Below are positions 22,251-34,615 of a stretch of DNA of 64,000 nucleotides, one piece after another. The first letter of the stretch is position 1, and every line of letters begins with the position of its first letter. The stretch is from Bacteroidota bacterium. Lineage in GTDB: Bacteria; Bacteroidota; Bacteroidia; Bacteroidales; GCA-2711565. The notes beneath the pieces are model-generated. The model saw nothing but the letters and a program-made list of their open reading frames with translations. It did not search any database and was not told the origin of the DNA. The DNA lies in contig JAHIVC010000099.1 of assembly GCA_018816945.1 (NCBI GenBank), positions 64,554 to 128,553 of the forward strand, in the 5' to 3' direction. The position numbers were made by a program, and so were the translations under genes.

Positions 22251-24575
22251 TCAATTAATGAACAAAATTTTTGTGATCATGGTCGACGAACCATCACGAT
22301 TGCTAACAAAAACCAGGTAAACGCCTGTTTTAGGTTTTTGTCCGTTTAATGTTTTTCCATCCCAAATTGCCTGTCCACCCAATGATCGGGTTTCAAAAAC
22401 CAAATCACCACTGATATCAGTAATTTTAACGATGGCTTCGTAAGGAACATTCTTAATGGTAATCGGACCCGAATAATCTTCCCTTACCGGATTTGGAAAG
22501 GCATAAATTTCTTCTTTTATGTTTGAAGCATCCGAAGCATCTGATCGATAGGAAATAATCCCATTGCTTGTCCCGAAAAACACTTCTCCTTCCTTATTAA
22601 TGGCGATCGATAGAATGTTGTTCGAAAGCAGTGGTGAATTTTCGGCCATGAAATGAAAAATCTGTTCTTTGCCATCTTCCGAAAATAAAAATACCCCTGA
22701 GTTTTCAGTTCCTACCCATTTTCGATTTGCACCATCTACCGCAATACTCGTGATCCGTTCAGTTTCGAGCAGATACTGAGTTCTGTTATCCCATTCAACA
22801 GTGATCCGTTGTACATCAAAACTACCTCCTCCAAAAACATTTTCCGGAGCGTAAATCAATCCGATACCTTCATTGGTTCCAAGCCAGATTTCTCCATTTA
22901 AATCCTCGGCCATGCAAACAATTTCTGAAGCGAAAATATTTCCGTTTCCCGGATTCGAGGTCAATACTTTTTTCTTATCATCCGATAAATCGCTGATTGA
23001 ATTGTTATCATTAAAAACCAGCAATGAATGGGCGTTTCGTAAGATGATCCACTTTTGATTGTAGGAATCGATCAACATGGTTCCGATATCGACCCCGCTG
23101 TAAGACGATCCCATATTAAACGAAAACCAGTTTCCGTCGATGGTTTGTACTGATAGAATGTCATTGGCACCTGAATTGGCAATCCATAGATTCCCGGCTT
23201 CATCAAATGCAAGATCACTTACCAATATTCTTGAAGGATCAGCATTCCAGGTTCCTAAACTAGAATTTTCGGTGTTATAAATTTCAGTTAAACTTCCATC
23301 ATTAAACTCAAGCAAACCGGTTTGCCAGGTGCCTGCAAAAACCTGTTTATGATTAAAAGGGTTAACAGCCAGGCTCAGCATATCTTGTACGTTTTCAAGT
23401 TCAGCAGATGTGCAATTTTCAGATAAACAATTGATGGAATTCCAGCTTTCATTGATGAACGAATAAATTCCTTCGCGTTTGAATAAGGGTGCCCATACCG
23501 AACTTCTTCCACCTGAAGCAACCCATAAATCATTACCGGCGGTTTTCATCGAAAAGACATCAATAAAGTCAGGGCCATTTAAACTAATGAATTCTCCTTG
23601 CCAACCATCACTTGAGGTTTTAACAAGGCCCTTTTTACTATCGGCAATCCAAATTTGATTTTCACTATCTATCAAAGCACTTTTTGGGAAAATACTCTTT
23701 TGGTTGGGCGACCAGATTTTGGTTTCCAATCCGAATTGTTGATTATAAACCAATACATCCATATTCCGGCAGAATAGCAATTTATTATCTTCAGCTACAA
23801 TATCAATAATATCCGATTGATCAGCATGGGAAAATAGCTGCCACCCTAATCCATTCTGAATGTAAAGGACATCATCATTATATCCGGCATTGTATTTATT
23901 AACAATTATTTTCCCACCAAAAAACTCCACTAAATTGAAAGGTGAAGCAAAATCAGGAATGGTTGTTATCCTTTGCCAGAATGCAAAATCAGCTAGATTA
24001 GGAGCATTAATTGAAGCTGTGTAAATCCCATTTTCTGTGGCAGCATAAAAATTTGTTTCATTTGCAGAAAGATCAAAAATATTCAGATAGCTACCATTTA
24101 GCCCTATGTAATAAGTGTCTTTGATTTCTTCTCTGATAAAATCCAAAACAACAATTCCAAACCCACAAGAAAGGTATGCCAGATTATTACGAATAAATAT
24201 ATTGTGGATGGTTTTATTCCCCAGAATCTGCTTCCGTTTGATATCAGAAATATTGATGATTTGGTTGTTCTTGACTAAATCAACATTAGAATTTGTGTAA
24301 GCTATGATCAAAATACCTGAATTTTTATCATAGCTAATTTTACTAATTCCAACATCCGATAACCCATTTACTTTTGAAAGTTTTTCGATGCTGTTATCCG
24401 TTTTTTCATAATAAAACAAACTATAGGGTGTGGCACAATAAATTTTCGATCCGGCCTCAGCAACAGAAATACCACTTTTATAGGGTAAATGATCGCGCCA
24501 CTGACCAATTCCTATCTGAGAAAAGACCGGGCTAATTAATAAAAAAAGAATGGTTATGAGAATGTATTTCTTCAA
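22251..24575 (-). CDS. Double beta-propeller (two-component-regulator-propeller type) protein with a T9SS C-terminal sorting domain; PorZ-like
   Basis: 774 aa with a signal peptide and many propeller-blade repeats (W-rich, G-L/I-x-x-F/Y). The C-terminal ~80 aa ends ...GVYLVFVSNRDGSSTMITKILFIN, resembling a T9SS CTD. Size and architecture resemble PorZ. The propeller-plus-CTD call is firmer than the PorZ call. Confidence 0.5.
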   Translation of the reverse strand: MKKYILITILFLLISPVFSQIGIGQWRDHLPYKSGISVAEAGSKIYCATPYSLFYYEKTDNSIEKLSKVNGLSDVGISKISYDKNSGILIIAYTNSNVDLVKNNQIINISDIKRKQILGNKTIHNIFIRNNLAYLSCGFGIVVLDFIREEIKDTYYIGLNGSYLNIFDLSANETNFYAATENGIYTASINAPNLADFAFWQRITTIPDFASPFNLVEFFGGKIIVNKYNAGYNDDVLYIQNGLGWQLFSHADQSDIIDIVAEDNKLLFCRNMDVLVYNQQFGLETKIWSPNQKSIFPKSALIDSENQIWIADSKKGLVKTSSDGWQGEFISLNGPDFIDVFSMKTAGNDLWVASGGRSSVWAPLFKREGIYSFINESWNSINCLSENCTSAELENVQDMLSLAVNPFNHKQVFAGTWQTGLLEFNDGSLTEIYNTENSSLGTWNADPSRILVSDLAFDEAGNLWIANSGANDILSVQTIDGNWFSFNMGSSYSGVDIGTMLIDSYNQKWIILRNAHSLLVFNDNNSISDLSDDKKKVLTSNPGNGNIFASEIVCMAEDLNGEIWLGTNEGIGLIYAPENVFGGGSFDVQRITVEWDNRTQYLLETERITSIAVDGANRKWVGTENSGVFLFSEDGKEQIFHFMAENSPLLSNNILSIAINKEGEVFFGTSNGIISYRSDASDASNIKEEIYAFPNPVREDYSGPITIKNVPYEAIVKITDISGDLVFETRSLGGQAIWDGKTLNGQKPKTGVYLVFVSNRDGSSTMITKILFIN

Positions 24576-24687
24576 TGTCTTTATGTTTGCTTACACAATA
24601 TTAGTAATTTCATTTTTAATGAACGTCTTTTAAAGATCAAATTACTGCGGTGTTCAAACATCTTATATCTTGATATTCTATATCTAA

Positions 24688-25485
24688 TTATGATGAATAA
24701 ATATGCAGACTGTTTTGAGCAGCCGGTAAATAATTAATTCCAAACCAGCATACCAATAAAATAATAAAAGCGAAGGTAAGAATCCAAAGTGCCTGCGTCG
24801 TATTGGTTTTTTTCTTTATTCGAAGATGAATATAGATAAGATAAACCAACCAGGTTAATAAGGCCCAAGTTTCCTTAGGATCCCAGGTCCAATAATGTCC
24901 CCAGGCTTCTTTTGCCCATAATGCACCAAACAATAATCCAAATGTTAAAAAAGCAAAACCCAGATAAACCGAATTATCTGCTAATTTTAAGGTTGGATCA
25001 AAATCCATATTTTTCTTCATCAGAACTAAGCCCTTTAATGCCGTTAATGACGAAACGGCCAAAAAGGCATAAGCAATTATGTACACCACAACGTGTGGAA
25101 TAAACCAAGGCGATTGAAGTGCCGGCATCAATGTTTTATCAAAAGTTTCGGGGTTCATAATGTTTATGAACATAAACAAAACAGCCAACGTAAGGGTATA
25201 TGCCAACATCCAGAATATTTTCCATCGATAATAAATGAAAATCCCTATTACCGATAAAAATATAGAATACCATAAACGGGTTTCGCCAAGGGTCCGAAAT
25301 GGCGGACGCTCCAAACTTATCCATAAATTAATGGTAAAACAGGCCAGACCACCAACTCCAAGTATGAGAAATACTGCAGCAAACCAACTGTATGTTTTTG
25401 ATTTTACGAATATTAAAAAGAGCAATCCCACAATCCATAATGCAGTTGTGAGGTAAGTATATAGCGGAAAACTTGTCCAGGTCAT
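24688..25485 (-). CDS. ccsA: Cytochrome c biogenesis protein CcsA (System II heme lyase subunit)
   Basis: 265 aa, polytopic, with the tryptophan-rich WWD-type motif WGHYWTWDPKETWALLTWL. Confidence 0.85.
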   Translation of the reverse strand: MTWTSFPLYTYLTTALWIVGLLFLIFVKSKTYSWFAAVFLILGVGGLACFTINLWISLERPPFRTLGETRLWYSIFLSVIGIFIYYRWKIFWMLAYTLTLAVLFMFINIMNPETFDKTLMPALQSPWFIPHVVVYIIAYAFLAVSSLTALKGLVLMKKNMDFDPTLKLADNSVYLGFAFLTFGLLFGALWAKEAWGHYWTWDPKETWALLTWLVYLIYIHLRIKKKTNTTQALWILTFAFIILLVCWFGINYLPAAQNSLHIYSS

Positions 25486-25488
25486 AAA

Positions 25489-26739
25489 TTAGTCTTTAAT
25501 AGTTTTTGATCTTCCGGTTAGTGCCAGGTAAAGTGATCCTGCCAATATCATAAAAATACTGGTATAAACTGCAGGCAACCATGGGTCCCGAATGAGCTGA
25601 ATGGCACTCATTTTTGACCATTTTCCCATTTTCTCGTCATATCCAACCTGATAAATTTTATACCCAAATACTTCAATAGGTTTGTTTACTATAATCTCAG
25701 CATCTTCGTATTTACTTACAGTTTTGAAAATCCTTAGTTTTGAGCTGAATTTTTTTGGGGCTTGAACTGTCATTGCCAAGGATAGGGTTTCATTTAACGG
25801 CATCAACTGCTTATCATACATGAAATTACCTGCAGAAATCCATCCTGTTTTTTCAACGCCGCTATTTACATTTACTGCCTTTATTTCAACTGCCGGAGTT
25901 GCACCCATAGTAGATGAGCTATCATATTGCCCATCTTTATATCTTGCTTCGGCAATAGATTGCTCTATTTCGAATTGCCAATCATTCCAATTAAACTTAT
26001 TACCGATATTTACATCAAACAGCTTTTCTCCTTTTTTTGTCACAATTTTTGAGGTTTCGTTATCAATAATTGCCAGTGAAGGTGGATATTCTTCAATATC
26101 GAATTCAAGTAATTTAATAGCAAAAGGAAGTTGCTGTGTTATTCCGTTTTTATCCTCTGCAAAATAAATGGCCCGATCTAACACCAGGTTCATATTAAAC
26201 ATCTTTATATCGGCAGATCCCAGCGAAGCAGATGCTATCAAAATCCATAATCCGGCATGATTTAAGAAAAAACCGATATTTTTAAGATTGAATTTATTCA
26301 GTCTTTTAAAAATTGCATGACCAAGAATTGCAAGTAAGTAAATAGCAGAAAACAGGTAAGGCCAGCTATTTTTCAAATGAGTCAATCCCCAGGTTTGTAT
26401 CCAACCTTCCTGCCTTTGTTGAGGAATAAATGCCATTAAAAGAACCAGGAACATCACAAAACTGATAGCTGTAACTGCTGCCGGAACACCAGACAGAAAA
26501 GAAGTAATTCTATTGTTAAGAATTTTACTGCTTATCCAAAAAATGACAATGAGCCCAATGGCTATAACCAAATTAATAGGCCATCCTGGAAGGGTAATCC
26601 TGTATTCGGATAGCACAAATTCAAGAACAAAACCCGCGATCAGCAAAGCAAGGTTTATTAGAATGCTTTCCTTGAATCCCCAAGGCTTTTCCCATATTTT
26701 TTTGTTGATCTTTTCAGCGTTATCTATATCTGTATGCAT
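25489..26739 (-). CDS. ResB/CcsB-like cytochrome c biogenesis protein (System II)
   Basis: 416 aa with several N-terminal TMs, a large soluble loop and a C-terminal TM. Its stop lies 3 nt upstream of ccsA, the classic ccsB-ccsA arrangement. Confidence 0.7.
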   Translation of the reverse strand: MHTDIDNAEKINKKIWEKPWGFKESILINLALLIAGFVLEFVLSEYRITLPGWPINLVIAIGLIVIFWISSKILNNRITSFLSGVPAAVTAISFVMFLVLLMAFIPQQRQEGWIQTWGLTHLKNSWPYLFSAIYLLAILGHAIFKRLNKFNLKNIGFFLNHAGLWILIASASLGSADIKMFNMNLVLDRAIYFAEDKNGITQQLPFAIKLLEFDIEEYPPSLAIIDNETSKIVTKKGEKLFDVNIGNKFNWNDWQFEIEQSIAEARYKDGQYDSSSTMGATPAVEIKAVNVNSGVEKTGWISAGNFMYDKQLMPLNETLSLAMTVQAPKKFSSKLRIFKTVSKYEDAEIIVNKPIEVFGYKIYQVGYDEKMGKWSKMSAIQLIRDPWLPAVYTSIFMILAGSLYLALTGRSKTIKD

Positions 26740-26966
26740 AAAGTTATTTTAGTGTACCAAGGATCATATAAATCTAGTGTGGCGAATATACGAGTTTTTC
26801 AATCTAAGTAATATTGTTTTAAAGGACAAATTAAGATGAATTGTTTGAATTCAGGATAAAGCATTGAATCTTATATTTACCATTAAGATTTTGAAATATA
26901 GGTATATTGCCTATATAATTAGCCTTATTCATTTCTCATCTTTGATTTAAAAGTATCATGGAATTC

Positions 26967-26980
26967 ATGATAAATATCAT
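26967..26980. promoter_or_regulatory. FNR/CRP-like palindrome aTGAT-AAAT-ATCAt
   Basis: Located in the divergent region between the resB-like gene and the ImcH-like gene, 33 nt upstream of the -7 box at 27013. It matches 8 of 10 consensus positions of TTGAT-N4-ATCAA. Confidence 0.3.
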
Positions 26981-27012
26981 TCATATTAAAAATTACAGCT
27001 ATCTTAATTGTA

Positions 27013-27020
27013 TAATTTTG
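27013..27020 (+). promoter_or_regulatory. -7 box TAATTTTG upstream of the ImcH-like cytochrome gene
   Basis: Located 24 nt upstream of the ATG at 27044. It lies inside the 5' end of the track ORF that starts at the TTG at 27008. Confidence 0.4.
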
Positions 27021-27043
27021 TAAAACATACTAAAATTACTAAT

Positions 27044-28543
27044 ATGAAACTTCCAAAAACTGCCTATAACTGGACATCCTTAATTGGGGCGACCATATCA
27101 ATTATTTCATTATCGATGATCGTATTTCTATTTACGATATCAATCATGTTCGATAAAGGAGGTTCTTATCTTGGTATTTTTATTTACATGGTATTGCCCA
27201 TGTTTTTAATATTTGGATTAATTCTTATTCCAATTGGGATGTGGAAGCGGCACAGGGCGGAGTTAAAAAATGCTGATCTTAAAGAATTAAAATGGCTTAA
27301 AATAGATTTTAACGATCCAAAGCATAGAAATGCAATGTTGATTTTCATAGTTGGATCGGCCATATTTTTGTTTTTATCCTCCATTGGAAGTTATGAGGCC
27401 TTTCACTATTCCGAATCTGTAGAATTTTGTGGTACCGTTTGCCATGATGTGATGGAACCTGAATATGTTGCTTATCAAAACTCTCCACATGCAAGGGTTG
27501 CTTGTGTTGAATGTCACGTTGGTGAAGGTGCTGATTGGTATGTTCGTTCAAAATTATCAGGAATGTATCAGGTGTATTCAGTACTGTTTAAGAAGTATCC
27601 TACTCCAATTCCTACACCGGTTGAAAATTTACGTCCGGCCCGTGAAACATGCGAACGCTGTCATTGGCCCGAAAAATTTTATGCACAACAAAATCGCTTA
27701 GAAAAACATTATATTGCTGATGAACAAAATTCAGAATGGGACATCAGTTTGCAAATTAAAACAGGTCCCAATTACAGCGCTCTTGGATTGCAAGAAGGAA
27801 TTCACTGGCATATAAATCCTGATGTTACCATTGAGTATATTCCCGGTTCATCAAACAGAGAAGAAATCCCCTGGGTTAAATACACCAATAAAAAGACCGG
27901 CGAAACTTATATTTATGAAGACACTGAAAATCCATTAAGTGAAGAAGTAATTAATTCTTCGCAGATAAGAACGATGGATTGTATGGATTGCCATAATAGG
28001 CCTTCACATAATTATTTATCGCCGTCAAAGTTTGTTGACAATGCAATGATAGCAGGCCTAATGTCATCTTCTATCCCTGAGCTAAAAGTGACTGCCATGG
28101 GATTACTATCCATCGAATATCCAACCAAGGACAGTGCTTTAAACGCTATTGCATCTGGAATTAAAGGGTTTTATGAAAATTCTTATCCTGAATTTTTAGC
28201 AGAGAATAAAGGTTTAATCGATGATGCAATTACTGCATTGCAGGATGGATTTCAAAAAAACATATTCCCATTCATGAAAGTCAGATGGGATATATATCCT
28301 AACCATATTGGTCATATCGAAAGCAATGGGTGCTTCAGGTGTCATAATGATACCCATCAAACCAAGGAACAAAGGGCCATTTCTAAAGATTGTAATTTGT
28401 GTCATATTATCAATGCCCAAGGACCTCCTGCCAATTTGGAACGATCATTAACTTTTGATGCACTTGAATTTAAACATCCGGTGGATATTGGTGAGGAGTG
28501 GAAAGTTACAAATTGTGCCGAATGTCATTCAGCTTTATTTTAA
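27044..28543 (+). CDS. Inner-membrane heptaheme c-type cytochrome with a NapC/NirT-like module (ImcH-like architecture)
   Basis: Seven CxxCH motifs (CGTVCH, CVECH, CERCH, CMDCH, CFRCH, CNLCH, CAECH) and about 3 N-terminal TM helices. The NapC/NirT-like stretch is FCGTVCHDVMEPEYVAYQNSPHARVACVECH. I moved the start from the track's TTG at 27008 to the ATG at 27044, because a TAATTTTG -7 box sits at 27013-27020. Confidence 0.8.
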   Translation: MKLPKTAYNWTSLIGATISIISLSMIVFLFTISIMFDKGGSYLGIFIYMVLPMFLIFGLILIPIGMWKRHRAELKNADLKELKWLKIDFNDPKHRNAMLIFIVGSAIFLFLSSIGSYEAFHYSESVEFCGTVCHDVMEPEYVAYQNSPHARVACVECHVGEGADWYVRSKLSGMYQVYSVLFKKYPTPIPTPVENLRPARETCERCHWPEKFYAQQNRLEKHYIADEQNSEWDISLQIKTGPNYSALGLQEGIHWHINPDVTIEYIPGSSNREEIPWVKYTNKKTGETYIYEDTENPLSEEVINSSQIRTMDCMDCHNRPSHNYLSPSKFVDNAMIAGLMSSSIPELKVTAMGLLSIEYPTKDSALNAIASGIKGFYENSYPEFLAENKGLIDDAITALQDGFQKNIFPFMKVRWDIYPNHIGHIESNGCFRCHNDTHQTKEQRAISKDCNLCHIINAQGPPANLERSLTFDALEFKHPVDIGEEWKVTNCAECHSALF

Positions 28544-29411: not shown

Positions 29412-30026
29412 TCAATGTATTTCGTGATAGCCATTAATCATGCCCTTAAAATTACTAAGCGGTGTATGTCCGATGGTGCAAAAGTAGATATGGACAATTA
29501 AAAATAGTGAGACAATAAATCCCATTATAACGTGAATGATATGAGTTATATGTAATGCTTTGTTCCCAAAAAAATCAATAACCAAGAATTCGGGATATAG
29601 TATCATGATCCCTGTTAAAACCACAAGTGGGATAGTTACATACATCACAAAAATATAACTGAACTTTTGCAGTGGATTAAATTTATGCTCTTTAGTAATT
29701 GGAAATGGAGGATTTTCTCCTTTAAAAATACCAAAAGCATAATATCTGGCTTGCATAATCAAGTTCTTTACGATACCTTTTCTAAGAAAATACTGCCGAC
29801 CATTTGGTGTAAGGAAATTTCCCAGAAAAAAACAGATATAACTCAGTACCAGAATAATTCCGGCGATATTATGAATTGATACGGACCAATCAAATCGAAT
29901 CAGAGGAAGTGCCGGATCAGAATATTGCATGCTGATGCCGGTAAAGATCAACAATAAACAAAGGATTGCATTAAACCAATGCCAAAGCCTGATCCAAACG
30001 GGGTATAAATATATTTTTTCACTCAT
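29412..30026 (-). CDS. Membrane b-type cytochrome (FdnI/HydC/PhsC-like, Ni/Fe-hydrogenase cytochrome b family)
   Basis: 204 aa with 4 TM helices carrying conserved His residues (WIRLWHWFNAI, SIHNIAGI, HITHIIHVIMGF, LIVHIYF). Its start lies 5 nt after the stop of the upstream heptaheme gene. Confidence 0.75.
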   Translation of the reverse strand: MSEKIYLYPVWIRLWHWFNAILCLLLIFTGISMQYSDPALPLIRFDWSVSIHNIAGIILVLSYICFFLGNFLTPNGRQYFLRKGIVKNLIMQARYYAFGIFKGENPPFPITKEHKFNPLQKFSYIFVMYVTIPLVVLTGIMILYPEFLVIDFFGNKALHITHIIHVIMGFIVSLFLIVHIYFCTIGHTPLSNFKGMINGYHEIH

Positions 30027-30031
30027 GGCGC

Positions 30032-31006
30032 TTAATGTTTAATGATAATACGTAAGAAAGCATGAATACACAATCCCAGAAAAACTAAAACGAATAATCC
30101 AATACTGATAACATTCAGATAGTAATTTCTGTTAGCTCCAATTACATACGATTCTTCAAGCATTGCCTCATTTGAAAAACCGGTAATGCTTCGTTCGTTG
30201 GTAAACTGATATTTATAAAGAGAGGCAAGCAATCGCGATTCTTTCGAATGACACTCCACACAAAGCTTAATAGCCTCTTCTTTAGGCCGAACATTATGTG
30301 CAACTAAGGTGTTATCATTAATTTGAGTATGACATTCGATGCACCTAACTTTTTTAAAGTGAAGAACTTGGTTGGGCAACCAATTATGTGTTACTAAAAC
30401 ATTCGGGTTTTCCATCGTAGTCAACAACTGGTATTTAGAAATATCAGCATGGCAGGTCAAACAAATTTCATTATCGTATTGTATGAAATCAGCCATATTT
30501 TCGTTGGTACGTGCATTAATTTTATAACTATGCGGATTATGACACATCCAGCAGGTAAAGTCTTCGGAATGTTTTGAGGAGTGAACACTTTTGTGAAAAT
30601 CTTCTTCGATTTGCTCAAAATTGAACTTTGCATATTGTTCATCGCCGGCATGACAATCTAAACATGCAAATTTAGGCTCCATGCGCAATTGCCCTGAGTG
30701 GGGAAATTCTCCATAGTCGGCCGAATGACAATCCCTACAACTAAATTTCCAATGATTTGATTGGTAATATTCTACTGAATCCACGATAAAATATGGATTC
30801 ATTCTTTCTTTCACTTTTTTCCCCATCCAGTCGTTTTGATAGTAATAGTTTGCCTGTCCGTGACAACTGAAGCATAATTGATTGTCTTCGGCATACTCAG
30901 CTATTCTTTGAGTTTGATCAGTTTGTGCAAGTATATAATTAGGCTGAAATAAAAACAAAGAGAAGAAGATAAAAACACCTAAAATGCGATATAAATTTCT
31001 TTTCAT
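30032..31006 (-). CDS. Heptaheme c-type cytochrome with signal peptide and C-terminal membrane anchor
   Basis: 324 aa with seven CxxCH motifs (CFSCH, CRDCH, CLDCH, CWMCH, CLTCH, CIECH, CVECH) and a C-terminal TM (YYLNVISIGLFVLVFLGLCIHAFL). Confidence 0.8.
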   Translation of the reverse strand: MKRNLYRILGVFIFFSLFLFQPNYILAQTDQTQRIAEYAEDNQLCFSCHGQANYYYQNDWMGKKVKERMNPYFIVDSVEYYQSNHWKFSCRDCHSADYGEFPHSGQLRMEPKFACLDCHAGDEQYAKFNFEQIEEDFHKSVHSSKHSEDFTCWMCHNPHSYKINARTNENMADFIQYDNEICLTCHADISKYQLLTTMENPNVLVTHNWLPNQVLHFKKVRCIECHTQINDNTLVAHNVRPKEEAIKLCVECHSKESRLLASLYKYQFTNERSITGFSNEAMLEESYVIGANRNYYLNVISIGLFVLVFLGLCIHAFLRIIIKH

Positions 31007-31147: not shown

Positions 31148-32017
31148 TTAGAAACCCCACAATCTTGTAATATTGAAACCTATAAACAAAGCTCCATCTT
31201 GCCAATCATTAATGTTGGTCATCATATTGTATTGTGGGCTAAGCGTATTGGCTGTTCCCATGAATATTTGGAAAGCGTGAGTTCCTGTTGCAAATTCAAC
31301 ACCAAAAGCTAAATTAGGTTTTGCTTTAAGATCCAAAACAGTATGTTCTTGAATTCCTTTGATATGCAAAGGAGCATCATAATTAAAAATGAAAGATCCT
31401 TGTGGGCTGAATTTTACCCTGCCACTAAAGGAAATCGCAATTTTATCATGTTCCTGTGTCGATTCAACCTTATTAATATGTGAGATACTTGGTGCAACCT
31501 GAAAAGAGAATGCATCGCAAAATTTTCGACCAATGATGATTTGGTTGAAAAATGAAAATCGATCTGTTCCACGTGAAGGTTGCCCGGCAGAAACAAATAC
31601 TTCCTTATTTCTACCATCAATACCAAAATTACTATAATAGGTTATGGCTAGCGGGCTTCCGCCTTCCCGGGCTTGTTTTAAAATACTCCATTTTAATCTA
31701 AAATCGGTCATTTTATTGTATTTTATGGCTCCAACACCGATCATGATATTATTGTTTATGCTATAATTCAATCCAAGTCTGATATTTGATGGTGCATAAA
31801 GACCATACAAATCGGTAATTCCGTTCTGGACGGTTCCAAAATTATGCTCAATAATCATTTCAAGTGTTCGGGCATCTGGAATTACTCCGGTTTGGGCATT
31901 GATTAAAATCCCACTTTCAAATGGTGATCTTACCGGTTTAACTTCAACTTTTTCTTCTTGTGCAAGGAGAACGCCAAAACACATCAAAAAAGCCAGTATT
32001 ATGCTATATTTTTTCAT
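31148..32017 (-). CDS. Predicted small outer-membrane beta-barrel protein (possibly DUF5777-like)
   Basis: 289 aa with a signal peptide (...GVLLAQEEK). It shows an alternating hydrophobic pattern throughout and a terminal aromatic residue (...GFNITRLWGF), typical of OM barrels. The family name is from memory and unverified. Confidence 0.6.
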   Translation of the reverse strand: MKKYSIILAFLMCFGVLLAQEEKVEVKPVRSPFESGILINAQTGVIPDARTLEMIIEHNFGTVQNGITDLYGLYAPSNIRLGLNYSINNNIMIGVGAIKYNKMTDFRLKWSILKQAREGGSPLAITYYSNFGIDGRNKEVFVSAGQPSRGTDRFSFFNQIIIGRKFCDAFSFQVAPSISHINKVESTQEHDKIAISFSGRVKFSPQGSFIFNYDAPLHIKGIQEHTVLDLKAKPNLAFGVEFATGTHAFQIFMGTANTLSPQYNMMTNINDWQDGALFIGFNITRLWGF

Positions 32018-32035: not shown

Positions 32036-32449
32036 TTAATTATTTTTAGCACCCTCTGTAATCCATTTCAGGACCAATGCACTTTGTGAATCTGTAAATT
32101 GCTTCCAGGCGTGCGTACCTGCTCCAGGCTTAACGTAAGTGTACAATTTGCTGGAAGCCGGATTAGCTGTATTTACAAGACCCTTGGAAATGATTTCGCT
32201 ATAGGCTTTTGCAGCAGTCAAATAAGGACGGGTTCCACCGTCTCCATGACAGGATGTACAACGATTACCTGTTGTAAAAATGGGTACAATCATCGTAGAA
32301 AAACTAGTTGCATCCGGATCAACAGGATCATCTGGATCTGGTTCCTCAATAGGGGGAGGAGTAGGGCGATATATAAAATCATATTCACAACCCGTAACAA
32401 CCATCATTCCAACGAAAACCAGTATTAGTATATATATTGATTTTTTCAT
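32036..32449 (-). CDS. Monoheme c-type cytochrome lipoprotein with an acidic Pro-rich linker (PSCyt-like heme motif)
   Basis: Start chosen at the ATG at 32449 (MKKSIYILILVFVGMMVVTGC lipobox). The track's TTG start at 32479 falls inside a terminator hairpin. The linker reads PTPPPIEEPDPDDPVDPD and there is a single CxxCH (IVPIFTTGNRCTSCHGDGG). Confidence 0.6.
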   Translation of the reverse strand: MKKSIYILILVFVGMMVVTGCEYDFIYRPTPPPIEEPDPDDPVDPDATSFSTMIVPIFTTGNRCTSCHGDGGTRPYLTAAKAYSEIISKGLVNTANPASSKLYTYVKPGAGTHAWKQFTDSQSALVLKWITEGAKNN

Positions 32450-32477
32450 TGCAGAAATTTTAAATGTCATTTTAATC

Positions 32478-32510
32478 AAAAAAAGGCACCTTAAATAACC
32501 GATGCCTTTT
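32478..32510 (-). terminator. Intrinsic terminator or attenuator inside the cytochrome operon, after the hexaheme gene
   Basis: The minus strand reads aaaggca-tcggttatttaagg-tgccttt followed by a T-run. It lies between the stop at 32533 and the next start at 32449. Confidence 0.65.
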
Positions 32511-32532
32511 TCTATATGGTTAATTACATAAC

Positions 32533-33609
32533 TTATTTAACTTTCGCAATCGTATTTTTCAGAATGCCAATTACATATTGTGGATTGTGAACTCCAAGGC
32601 TCTTGTCTTCAGTAGCTAATTGCCAGTTAATAAAAGCTGCTGCTAAGTTGGCTGGTTGCGAACCTGCAATTGCATAACCTGCATGGCCTTTTGAACCATC
32701 ATCATAGATACCTTTTGCAGTCAAGATAGCTTGTAACTCATCTAATAAAGTTTGAACTTCTAATTGTAAAGCTTTAACTTGTGCAGTCACTTCGGTGGTG
32801 CTAGTATGACAACTGGTACAACCTGCATAAGAAATCGCACCTGTTTCTTCATTAGTTACATTAAAAGTATGACCACCGGTAGAAGTGCCAGTAGCTGCAG
32901 CCATATGACAAGCAACACAACCGTCTTCCACATAATTTGCATGGGTGTTGATACCATAAGTTGCGGTTCCGCCCATTTTAATTAAACCTTCGCCTGCTAA
33001 TACGTTTGCCTGTGGACCATGATGGCCACCATAACGATAAGAAGTTAAAGTTACATTAGCTCCATCAACAACTGGCATTGGGCTAATTGGTCTAGATTGA
33101 TGACAGGTAGCACATAAATTACCTTTTCCAAAATCAACAGTGGCACCACCAACAAATAATTGAACATTTGCCGTTTGTGTTAAGCCTAAATCAGCAGGAG
33201 TGAATGTTTTGTGAATGTTATGACAAGTATAACAGTTAATTGGGTTGGGATTGTTGATAATTATACCATCATAAGTTCCGGCTAGGTTAGCAAGGAATCC
33301 TTGACTGGTATGACAAGTTGCACATGCACCGGTATTTCTTGCAAAAGCTTCACCAGTTGCATGAAGTGAATGTTCCCATTGGTTTACTTGTGCAAACATA
33401 CCCTGAGATTGACCCCCGTCGTGACATAGGATACAACCTGCTGTTCCGTCTATTCCGTCAACACCTGCTTCGCCTCTTGGTCCGGCTGGTCCTACTGCTC
33501 CATCAATTCCGTCTTTTCCTGCAGCACCTTCCTTGGTACAACTTGTAATCATTAACACAGAAAACAGAAATGCAACTGTTAAAAAAGTTAAAAATGTAAA
33601 TCTTTTCAT
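32533..33609 (-). CDS. Hexaheme c-type cytochrome lipoprotein with an N-terminal collagen-like Gly-X-Y repeat
   Basis: 358 aa with lipobox LMITSC. Eleven uninterrupted G-X-Y triplets follow (GAAGKDGIDGAVGPAGPRGEAGVDGIDGTAGCI). There are six CxxCH motifs (CILCH, CATCH, CYTCH, CATCH, CVACH, CTSCH). Confidence 0.8.
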   Translation of the reverse strand: MKRFTFLTFLTVAFLFSVLMITSCTKEGAAGKDGIDGAVGPAGPRGEAGVDGIDGTAGCILCHDGGQSQGMFAQVNQWEHSLHATGEAFARNTGACATCHTSQGFLANLAGTYDGIIINNPNPINCYTCHNIHKTFTPADLGLTQTANVQLFVGGATVDFGKGNLCATCHQSRPISPMPVVDGANVTLTSYRYGGHHGPQANVLAGEGLIKMGGTATYGINTHANYVEDGCVACHMAAATGTSTGGHTFNVTNEETGAISYAGCTSCHTSTTEVTAQVKALQLEVQTLLDELQAILTAKGIYDDGSKGHAGYAIAGSQPANLAAAFINWQLATEDKSLGVHNPQYVIGILKNTIAKVK

Positions 33610-33741: not shown

Positions 33742-33755
33742 TTGACATTTATCAA
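33742..33755. promoter_or_regulatory. FNR/CRP-type palindrome TTGAc-ATTT-ATCAA (9/10)
   Basis: Located in the divergent region between the hexaheme cytochrome start (33609) and the Crp/Fnr regulator start (33920). Confidence 0.45.
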
Positions 33756-33919: not shown

Positions 33920-34615
33920 ATGCCTACCTATATTAACAATGCATTATGCAAAGATTGTTCTAAAAGGCTTAACATTTTTCATTTTTTAACCGACGATGAA
34001 ATGGACTATATCAACGAGCATCGTCATGAGGTAAAATTCAATCCCGGCGAAACAATTTTCAAGCAAGGAGGAGCATTCACTCATGTTGCGTGTTTGACAT
34101 CAGGTTATGGAAAAGTTTATATAGAAGGCATCAATAAAAAGAATCTGGTTCTTAATATTTTACGACCTACAGAAATGATTGGTGGACCCGGATTGTTCAA
34201 CGATTTTCGTCATCATTATTCGGTTTCCGCAATTGATGATGTTGTTGCTTGTTTTATTGAAGTTGAGTCTTTTATGGAAGTTGCGAAACAAAACAAGGAG
34301 TTTGCTTCGGAACTATTCAAATGGATCAACCAAAAAGGGGTCCGTAATTTTGAAAAGCTGATTAATCTTACCCAAAAACAAATGCCCGGAAGAATAGCAG
34401 ATGCCTTACTCTATCTTTCAAACTCTGTTTACGAAAATGATAAATTTACGGTCAATATTTCACGTCAGGATATTGCAGATCTGGCAGCCATGTCGAAAGA
34501 AAGTGCCATCCGAATTATTAAAGAATTCAAAGAATCGGGCTTTATTACCTGTGAGGGGAACGATTTTAATATTCTCGATCCAAAGGCACTGCATAAAATT
34601 AGTCAGACCGGTTAA
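33920..34615 (+). CDS. Crp/Fnr-family transcriptional regulator
   Basis: 231 aa with a cNMP-binding-like beta-roll (FNPGETIFKQGG...) and a C-terminal HTH (SRQDIADLAAMSKESAIRIIKEFKESGFI). An N-terminal CxxC (CKDC) is present. The gene is divergent from the cytochrome operon. Confidence 0.85.
   Translation: MPTYINNALCKDCSKRLNIFHFLTDDEMDYINEHRHEVKFNPGETIFKQGGAFTHVACLTSGYGKVYIEGINKKNLVLNILRPTEMIGGPGLFNDFRHHYSVSAIDDVVACFIEVESFMEVAKQNKEFASELFKWINQKGVRNFEKLINLTQKQMPGRIADALLYLSNSVYENDKFTVNISRQDIADLAAMSKESAIRIIKEFKESGFITCEGNDFNILDPKALHKISQTG

Follow-up and report, generated by a model that had tools for sequence, protein, structure and literature searches.

Most of what is understood of extracellular and periplasmic electron transfer comes from work on Shewanella and Geobacter. 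Among the described cytochromes closest to the protein reported here are OcwA of Thermincola potens (6i5b), a cell-surface nonahaem terminal reductase with an NrfA/HAO/MccA-type helix bundle, and PgcA of Geobacter sulfurreducens, an extracellular trihaem lipoprotein which carries PTx repeats between its haem motifs, shows no unusual secondary structure by circular dichroism and is processed and released. The electron-transfer hardware of Bacteroidota, which abound in anoxic sediments, in digesters and in the subsurface, is essentially uncharacterised. We have analyzed a 64,000-nucleotide stretch of DNA from a Bacteroidota bacterium (GenBank assembly GCA_018816945.1, contig JAHIVC010000099.1, positions 64,554 to 128,553; hereafter the window), which contains at 32533-33609 on the minus strand an open reading frame (ORF) encoding a lipoprotein of 358 amino acids (aa) with six haem-binding motifs. 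In this hexahaem protein, an uninterrupted collagen-like Gly-X-Y segment, designated the stalk, lies between the predicted lipid anchor and the first haem.

PgcA is the nearest conceptual precedent. Like the hexahaem protein, it is a c-type cytochrome and a lipoprotein, belongs to an electron-transfer pathway and has repeats on the tripeptide scale that separate the lipid anchor and the haem motifs; the repeat described here differs in being Gly-X-Y, in forming a single N-terminal block and in having a register fixed to both the anchor and haem 1. OcwA gave the best profile and fold match, and in both proteins a C-terminal three-helix bundle with the last haems follows a globular multihaem core. 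The hexahaem protein has six haems instead of nine and shares only about 18% identity with OcwA, of which haems 2 and 5 are open distally, whereas all six appear to be bis-His here, as judged from conserved residues. It is moreover a Gram-negative lipoprotein with an N-terminal collagen-like stalk, which OcwA lacks. We know of no collagen-like stalk in the other solved relatives of the NrfA/OcwA superfamily.

The stalk itself recalls the collagen-like proteins Scl1/Scl2 (Streptococcus), BclA (Bacillus) and Lcl (Legionella), which share with it uninterrupted Gly-X-Y without hydroxyproline, triplets of the GKD/GxD/GPQ type and an adjoining globular domain. Proteins of this type carry tens of triplets, and the stalk of the hexahaem family is much shorter (5-16 triplets). 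It is further distinguished by an N-terminal lipid anchor in place of LPXTG or the exosporium and by a redox partner domain in place of an adhesin, and its triple helix is a proposal.

At the level of the locus, the arrangement of a multihaem lipoprotein gene adjoining an outer-membrane barrel and upstream electron-transfer cytochromes resembles that of MtrC/OmcA and the porin-cytochrome conduits (MtrCAB and the Geobacter porin-cytochrome complex, PCC). It differs in having six haems instead of the ten that MtrC/OmcA proteins hold in a staggered-cross fold, a partner barrel of about 12 strands and no periplasmic MtrA-like decahaem. Porin-cytochrome sheaths have 20-26 strands, about 26 for the large sheath that partners MtrC, so that no cytochrome could sit inside the predicted barrel found here. 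The generic Pfam family MtrC-MtrF_II-IV_dom (PF22113) scored 36 bits on the hexahaem protein against a cut-off of 30. Membership of the MtrC family was rejected on the number of haems, the size of the barrel and the lack of any MtrC-family structure among the Foldseek matches.

Literature searches combining collagen-like with multihaem or c-type cytochrome, and others on DUF5777 (the family of the partner barrel) and on extracellular electron transfer (EET) in Bacteroidetes, returned no description of the fusion, the family or the gene module; the Lentimicrobium and PgcA papers concern different proteins. This agrees with an earlier note on this DNA, made from the sequence alone, which knew of no such design among characterised multihaem cytochromes. 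Some NCBI records name homologs 'collagen-like protein', so automated annotation has already seen the repeat; others read 'nitrite reductase'.

The Gly-X-Y stalk of the hexahaem lipoprotein

The elements of the hexahaem gene are listed below with their coordinates in the window.

33538-33609, minus strand: signal peptide with lipobox, aa 1-24, MKRFTFLTFLTVAFLFSVLMITSC; lipidation is predicted at Cys24
33529-33537, minus strand: TKE spacer, three residues separating lipid anchor and stalk; matches the Bacteroidota lipoprotein export signal in part
33430-33528, minus strand: collagen-like stalk (aa 28-60) made of 11 unbroken Gly-X-Y triplets, the last of which takes in the first haem Cys
32536-33435, minus strand: six-haem c-type cytochrome domain, aa 59-358, from CXXCH motifs, Pfam, AlphaFold2 (AF2) and PDB matches
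32620-32889, minus strand: hypervariable segment, aa ~241-330, comprising the haem 6 region, the first long helix and a loop, from identity comparisons
~32477-32514, minus strand: intrinsic-terminator-like 14-bp hairpin and U-run, between the hexahaem gene and the next gene; -17.1 kcal/mol, z = -3.6

The signal peptide has its hydrophobic segment at aa 4-22 and an I-T-S-C lipobox ending at Cys24; the MITSC lipobox of the window protein has equivalents family-wide, and lipidation is predicted on this basis. The stalk is composed of the triplets GAA GKD GID GAV GPA GPR GEA GVD GID GTA GCI, and the last of them is shared with CILCH, the first of six CXXCH motifs (aa 59, 96, 126, 166, 231 and 264). 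The earlier note had reported lipobox, TKE, 11 triplets at 33430-33528 running into the first haem motif, and six haems, and its description and coordinates proved exact; the terminator that it assigned to the gene was also recovered. This hairpin starts 22 nt past the stop codon and was found by direct folding, since its 10-nt loop exceeds the loop-length limit of a simple pattern scanner. When all six frames of the window were read, the stalk was the sole G-X-Y run of at least 5 triplets, and in 1.04 Mb of related loci runs of at least 6 triplets were confined to the hexahaem family and one paralog. As long runs are restricted in this way, a chance origin of the stalk is excluded.

A homolog search gave at least 854 homologs at E <= 1e-5, and the 120 listed (44-100% identity) were used for comparison. 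Every one of them has an unbroken run of 5-12 triplets in the interval from the lipobox Cys to haem 1, with a lipobox-like Cys ahead of the stalk; 114 fit the strict lipobox pattern and the 6 others have another residue at -1 or an extended predicted N-terminus. The register is nearly invariant at both ends: the first Gly stands exactly three residues past the Cys in 118, CTKE precedes the run in 107, and at the other end 51 runs overlap the haem Cys and 68 stop 1 residue short of it. Between these fixed ends, the number of triplets differs by whole triplets only. Loss of Gly-X-Y from orthologs, which the earlier note had named as one of the observations that would speak against its proposal, is therefore not what these homologs display. 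At the loci of GTDB species genomes, 6-12 triplets were counted in all 83 with a readable gene, and the hexahaem gene of locus L069, missed at the first reading and later located, encodes 9.

To keep the stalk from biasing the result, a search was performed with the haem domain alone as query against 1.84 billion representatives (50% clustering). Matches numbered 1270 at E <= 0.001; at the stricter limits of 1e-10 and 1e-30 there were 769 and 210, respectively. In a set of 124 full-length representatives with 32-70% identity, at least 2 triplets are present in 114 and at least 5 in about 100, with a maximum of 16. The residues at X and Y turn over between clades while Gly is kept, so that GKD/GxD-rich stalks like that of the window protein are found in some and classic Pro-rich ones (GPQ/GPP) in others, as in P0276 (GETGPQGPTGPAGPPGPPGSSGPAGPPGPAGPAG) and L080 (GPRGPEGPAGIAGPQGPEGPQGPQGPVGPAG), which are of collagen type. 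In the 120 listed homologs, Asp is the commonest residue at Y (38%) and Glu accounts for 11% of X positions. In close relatives, the signal peptide and stalk are 81-97% identical, compared with about 70% for the haem core. Tandem Repeats Finder (TRF) detected no tandem repeat in the stalk-coding DNA, which rules out a recent slippage repeat as its origin. Taken together, these comparisons indicate that the stalk is under selection, and the view of the earlier note that it is a real design feature of a lipid-anchored multihaem cytochrome is borne out by its conservation through the family with whole-triplet changes of length.

By sequence, the segment qualifies as collagen-like. Its uninterrupted Gly-X-Y run counts 11 triplets in the window protein; the range among the homologs is 5-12, and the longest run among the representatives has 16. 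Weak profile matches were obtained with SclA, SclB and Lcl, and the PDB entries that align with the stalk in register are only true collagens, C1q, BclA and a phage fibre. The co-occurrence of Pfam Collagen (PF01391) with multihaem motifs, a check which the earlier note had proposed, is already on record for 9 of the 120 listed homologs, those with longer or more Pro-rich stalks. Collagen rises by about 0.286 nm per residue; at this value 5-12 triplets correspond to 4-10 nm and the stalk of the window protein to about 9 nm.

One sub-clade (P0271, P0306, P0324, P0333, P0347, P0357 and P0358) is stalk-free. Its members are lipoproteins in which a linker without Gly-X-Y has a constant length of 14-17 residues, and they are interleaved with members having 4-6 triplets and the same total length. 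Since stalk-free members exist, the haem domain can work without a long stalk, which is to be seen as accessory. A different kind of variation was noticed at locus L011, where a second, divergent stalked hexahaem paralog begins at about 2838, directly after the first copy, as a 444-aa reading frame with 10 triplets and the same SCTKE start.

The base composition of the gene had been noted earlier as G+C-rich and as consistent with high expression. The first part stands (40.5% G+C against an ORF mean of 35.6%, z = 1.9). The second does not follow from it: the excess lies in codon positions 1 and 2, where it results from the Gly/Ala/Pro/Cys-rich composition of the protein, and G+C at the third position (GC3) is low, so that the excess was rejected as a mark of either high expression or foreign origin. 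The gene has the lowest GC3 of the window's 46 ORFs (21.4%, z = -2.7) yet the highest overall G+C, and its third-position codon bias is unusually strong. This bias and the gene's own terminator are compatible with high expression and do not prove it.

The haem domain

Generic multihaem families of Pfam scored above their cut-offs on the haem domain, and aa 230-356 match the C-terminal part of cytochrome c552. The AF2 model (predicted local distance difference test, pLDDT, 83; predicted template modelling score, pTM, 0.78) shows a globular core followed by three long C-terminal helices forming a bundle (H271-298, H320-335 and H343-357). The best match of a family profile was OcwA (6i5b; E = 4.9e-14, aa 225-351), with NrfA and the octahaem nitrite reductases (ONR) next, and Foldseek similarly ranked OcwA first (E = 4e-6, TM-score about 0.5), then ONR and NrfA. 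The features that define the NrfA/OcwA/ONR fold class, namely CXXCH motifs with conserved distal ligands and a homologous C-terminal three-helix bundle, are found here, and on these profile and model comparisons the haem domain belongs to the NrfA/OcwA fold class as a remote member.

Six His residues outside the motifs (83, 133, 196, 223, 247 and 341) are 94-100% conserved in the 124 representatives, and no CXXCK motif is present in the hexahaem protein. With six conserved distal His for six haems and no CXXCK, the protein is likely to be an electron carrier rather than an enzyme. The conservation points to six bis-His electron-transfer haems and no catalytic site. For the same reasons, the protein was not retained as an NrfA-type nitrite reductase: the CXXCK of a catalytic haem is lacking and there is one conserved candidate distal His per haem.

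The hypervariable segment departs from this conservation. Compared with the related locus L006, its identity is about 40%, against 91-96% for the flanking genes and 90-93% for the stalk. For P0002-P0013, the 12 homologs with a stalk identity of 78% or more, identity of the segment is 36-61%; across all 29 compared it is 29-61%, and no database homolog exceeds 61%. This pattern suggests recombination or diversifying selection on what may be an exposed face of the protein.

The conserved gene module and its regulation

The hexahaem gene is the first, separately terminated gene of a minus-strand module, which was examined in 63 genome loci with at least 4.5 kb downstream. Its other members and the divergent regulator are the following.

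33920-34615, plus strand: divergent Crp/Fnr-family regulator with a cyclic nucleotide (cNMP)-binding domain and HTH_Crp_2
33742-33755, no strand assigned: palindromic box of FNR/CRP type, TTGATAAATGTCAA, lying 146 nt ahead of the start codon of the hexahaem gene
32036-32479, minus strand: small monohaem lipoprotein, one CXXCH, weak LIC11213-like match; directly downstream in 60 of 63 loci
31148-32017, minus strand: DUF5777 outer-membrane beta-barrel of about 12 strands (PF19089, E = 3.9e-73; AF2 pLDDT 87); 60 of 63 loci
30032-31006, minus strand: CbcA-like seven-haem cytochrome, seven CXXCH and a His-bearing C-terminal transmembrane segment, LFVLVFLGLCIHAFLRIII; 58 of 63 loci
29412-30026, minus strand: CbcB-like membrane cytochrome b (PF01292, E = 3.9e-25); 57 of 63 loci

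Gene order is kept at the frequencies given in the list. The monohaem lipoprotein, whose true start is likely to be the ATG at 32449, carries past its lipobox Cys a Pro/Asp-rich tether of about 27 residues. The length of this tether and that of the stalk vary together with r = 0.69 (n = 62 loci, uncorrected for phylogeny); when the close clade of the window is removed or collapsed, r falls to 0.35-0.45 (p 0.0005-0.009), also uncorrected for phylogeny. Such co-variation is suggestive, and would fit a spacer that sets the working height.

The folds nearest to the model of the DUF5777 barrel are FapF, NanC, the COG4313 channels and OmpG. With about 12 strands and this resemblance to FapF/NanC/OmpG, an MtrB-like sheath was ruled out, and the modelled barrel is too small to enclose a cytochrome as MtrB does. 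Four His of the barrel protein (H58, H180, H190 and H247) and many polar residues are invariant in 52 homologs; these His could form a cofactor or metal site, or a docking site for the tether.

The last two genes of the module match the published architecture of CbcBA of Geobacter sulfurreducens, an inner-membrane bc-type quinol oxidoreductase composed of a seven-haem cytochrome c with a His-bearing C-terminal helix and a four-helix dihaem cytochrome b. Both of these traits were found here, the hydropathy scan of the CbcB-like protein showing five segments, two of them overlapping, which were read as four helices; the comparison was made by description and not with the GSU0593/GSU0594 sequences. 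The paper describing CbcBA reports cbcBA homologs in Bacteroidetes (Prolixibacter, Marinilabiliales and Labilibaculum) and proposes them as an EET marker. The present pair differs in its regulator, which is Crp/Fnr instead of a sigma-54 BccR-type protein, and Geobacter cbcBA has no adjoining gene for a stalked cytochrome.

The Crp/Fnr gene lies divergently within 1.5 kb upstream of the hexahaem gene in 41 of 73 loci, and its product in the window has four Cys (positions 10, 13, 58 and 110). A 310-nt A+T-rich region shared by the two genes harbours the FNR-type box. Of 77 loci, 41 contain the pattern TTGAY-N4-RTCAA at a distance of 107-181 nt ahead of the hexahaem start; the background frequency of this pattern is about 0.005 per 350 nt.

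Past the module, on its downstream side, genes were found for a c554-like tetrahaem, a NapC/NirT-like cytochrome and ResB/CcsA haem attachment. Within the region 22251-28543, the stretch 22251-24575 encodes a PorZ-like component of type IX secretion and 24688-26739 the ResB/CcsA proteins of system II cytochrome c maturation; 27008-28543, on the plus strand, encodes a NapC/NirT-like membrane multihaem protein with one CXXXCH.

A proposed trimeric stalked cytochrome and competing explanations

The reading that we favour, with slightly better than even confidence, is that of a homotrimeric cytochrome carried by a collagen triple helix 4-10 nm off the outer membrane, as the distal part of an anaerobic respiratory or EET chain. 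Three copies of the hexahaem protein would come together through (Gly-X-Y)11 as a collagen triple helix, and the resulting rigid rod, about 9 nm long, would extend from three residues past the lipidated Cys to the first haem-binding Cys. With its three lipid anchors, this stalk would keep an 18-haem head at a constant spacing from the outer membrane, and the three haem-1 groups would cluster at the top of the rod. Electrons of menaquinol would enter through the inner-membrane CbcBA-like pair and pass to periplasmic cytochromes, the neighbouring Crp/Fnr regulator would switch the module on through the conserved FNR-type box, and the stalked cytochrome would be the distal electron acceptor or donor of the chain. 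We infer the triple helix because a strict Gly periodicity and whole-triplet indels have no other known structural rationale in an uninterrupted segment. HAO and MccA, of the same superfamily, are homotrimers. As to the face of the membrane, the similarity to OcwA and the hypervariable segment at aa 241-330 are each a weak hint of surface exposure.

Several observations weigh against this reading. With 22.2 bits (E = 1.2e-4), the window protein scores below the Pfam Collagen gathering threshold of 27.2 bits. Stalks of 5-12 triplets without hydroxyproline are short for an autonomous triple helix, and Asp, the commonest residue at Y, does not stabilise it, so that the stability of the helix would have to come from a trimerising haem domain and from membrane anchoring. 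In the monomer AF2 model, residues 24-63 are unstructured (pLDDT < 50), which is what a collagen segment would be expected to give when it is modelled as a single chain. In some relatives there are only 2-4 triplets, and about 10 of the 124 representatives, mostly from one sub-clade, are without Gly-X-Y. The nearest relative of solved structure, OcwA, forms a weak dimer instead of a trimer. The co-variation of tether and stalk ignores phylogeny, and its raw coefficient is inflated by one close clade. No electron route across the outer membrane is evident, the barrel having only about 12 strands. The optimal Bacteroidota surface lipoprotein export signal (LES) is C-X-K-(D/E)2-X (PMC5080379), of which C-T-K-E-G matches only the first half, with Lys at +3 and Glu at +4 and Gly at +5; in other clades the corresponding sequence is C-E-G-P. 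An acidic run immediately past the +1 Cys is the alternative mark of LES-dependent surface lipoproteins.

The shortness of the stalks and the destabilising Asp at Y would be in keeping with Gly-X-Y being a single-chain, extended or flexible tether of the polyproline-II type, which would give the haem domain of a monomer or dimer no more than reach from its lipid anchor. Family members with 0-4 triplets, the dimeric state of OcwA and the disorder of the stalk region in the AF2 monomer model also fit this explanation, and the neighbouring small lipoprotein obtains a similar tether from an ordinary Pro/Asp-rich linker. A tether of this kind, however, needs no Gly at every third residue, whereas the periodicity is unbroken in hundreds of sequences, indels are confined to whole triplets and Gly stays while X and Y turn over. 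Several clades have a canonical Pro-rich collagen sequence, and the start and end of the stalk are fixed relative to the lipid Cys and haem 1. We therefore regard the single-chain tether as unlikely, while giving it more weight than any of the explanations that follow. That the Gly-X-Y segment is a functionless, strain-specific low-complexity insertion or an artefact of annotation or assembly deserves next to no credence: the sub-threshold Pfam score is all that can be cited for it, and the stalk is found in every close homolog and most distant ones, has no repeat in its coding DNA and is better conserved than the haem core in close relatives. The identical protein is moreover on record on a 513-kb contig.

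Other explanations bear on function. Sequence and fold similarity to NrfA and the octahaem nitrite reductases, together with database labels of some homologs as nitrite reductase c552 or NapC-like subunits, could indicate a periplasmic NrfA-like reductase (of nitrite, sulfite or hydroxylamine, for example) which is incidentally lipid-anchored, in an ordinary periplasmic respiratory module without EET. The incomplete surface-export signal agrees with this, and so does the partner barrel, a small channel through which a soluble substrate could enter. Such a role appears improbable, as the protein has no CXXCK or other special haem motif, six distal His for six haems leave no open catalytic haem apparent, and the similarity to NrfA is mostly limited to the last two haems and the C-terminal helices; OcwA, a terminal reductase of the cell surface, is the nearest relative, and the CbcBA-like pair has been proposed as an EET marker. 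Still less probable, in our estimation, is that the acidic Gly-X-Asp-rich stalk, triple-helical or not, serves mainly in cation or mineral binding or in adhesion. The abundance of Asp at Y (38%) and of Glu at X (11%) would suit this purpose, the Pro-Thr repeats of the Geobacter lipoprotein PgcA have been proposed to bind Fe(III) oxides, and known bacterial collagen-like proteins are often adhesins. Many clades, however, have neutral Pro/Ala/Gln-rich stalks with few acidic residues, so that the conserved traits are Gly periodicity and length, not charge.

A wider form of the trimer reading can be put forward tentatively, and we think it more doubtful than the trimer itself. The family would then represent an unrecognised design by which Bacteroidota and neighbouring phyla bring respiratory electrons to the cell envelope or across it, an 18-haem trimeric 'lollipop' whose stalk of about 4-14 nm is tuned by whole triplets, with a matching tether on the partner and a 12-strand barrel replacing the porin-cytochrome sheath; collagen would in that case act as a molecular ruler for a redox protein. 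The module is large and tightly conserved, and its lead protein joins a collagen-like stalk and a multihaem cytochrome, which we have not found described together. If the stalk is a triple helix, this would be the first collagen-spaced redox protein known to us and a natural example of distance control in biological electron transfer, and its gene, with those of DUF5777 and the CbcBA-like pair, would provide a genomic marker for a respiratory pathway of Bacteroidota type. DUF5777 gains a functional context, and the database names 'collagen-like protein' and 'nitrite reductase' can be corrected.

Relatives of the hexahaem protein were found in 185 species genomes and form at least 210 clusters (50% identity) at E <= 1e-30. 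They are almost all metagenome-assembled and come from Bacteroidales, Lentimicrobiaceae, Marinilabiliales and Draconibacterium, with a few from bins labelled Chlorobiota, Marinimicrobia or Gemmatimonadota. One named isolate, Sunxiuqinia sp. A32, has a hexahaem homolog, and the partner DUF5777 gene is present in Prolixibacteraceae strain Z1-6, which makes experiments feasible. Giant multidomain relatives of up to 1946 aa and 24 CXXCH share a haem module of the hexahaem type. This module is internal and the stalk absent in P0327, P0334, P0343, P0381 and P0350; in P0269 (797 aa, 13 CXXCH), the N-terminal stalk has been retained and a C-terminal extension added.

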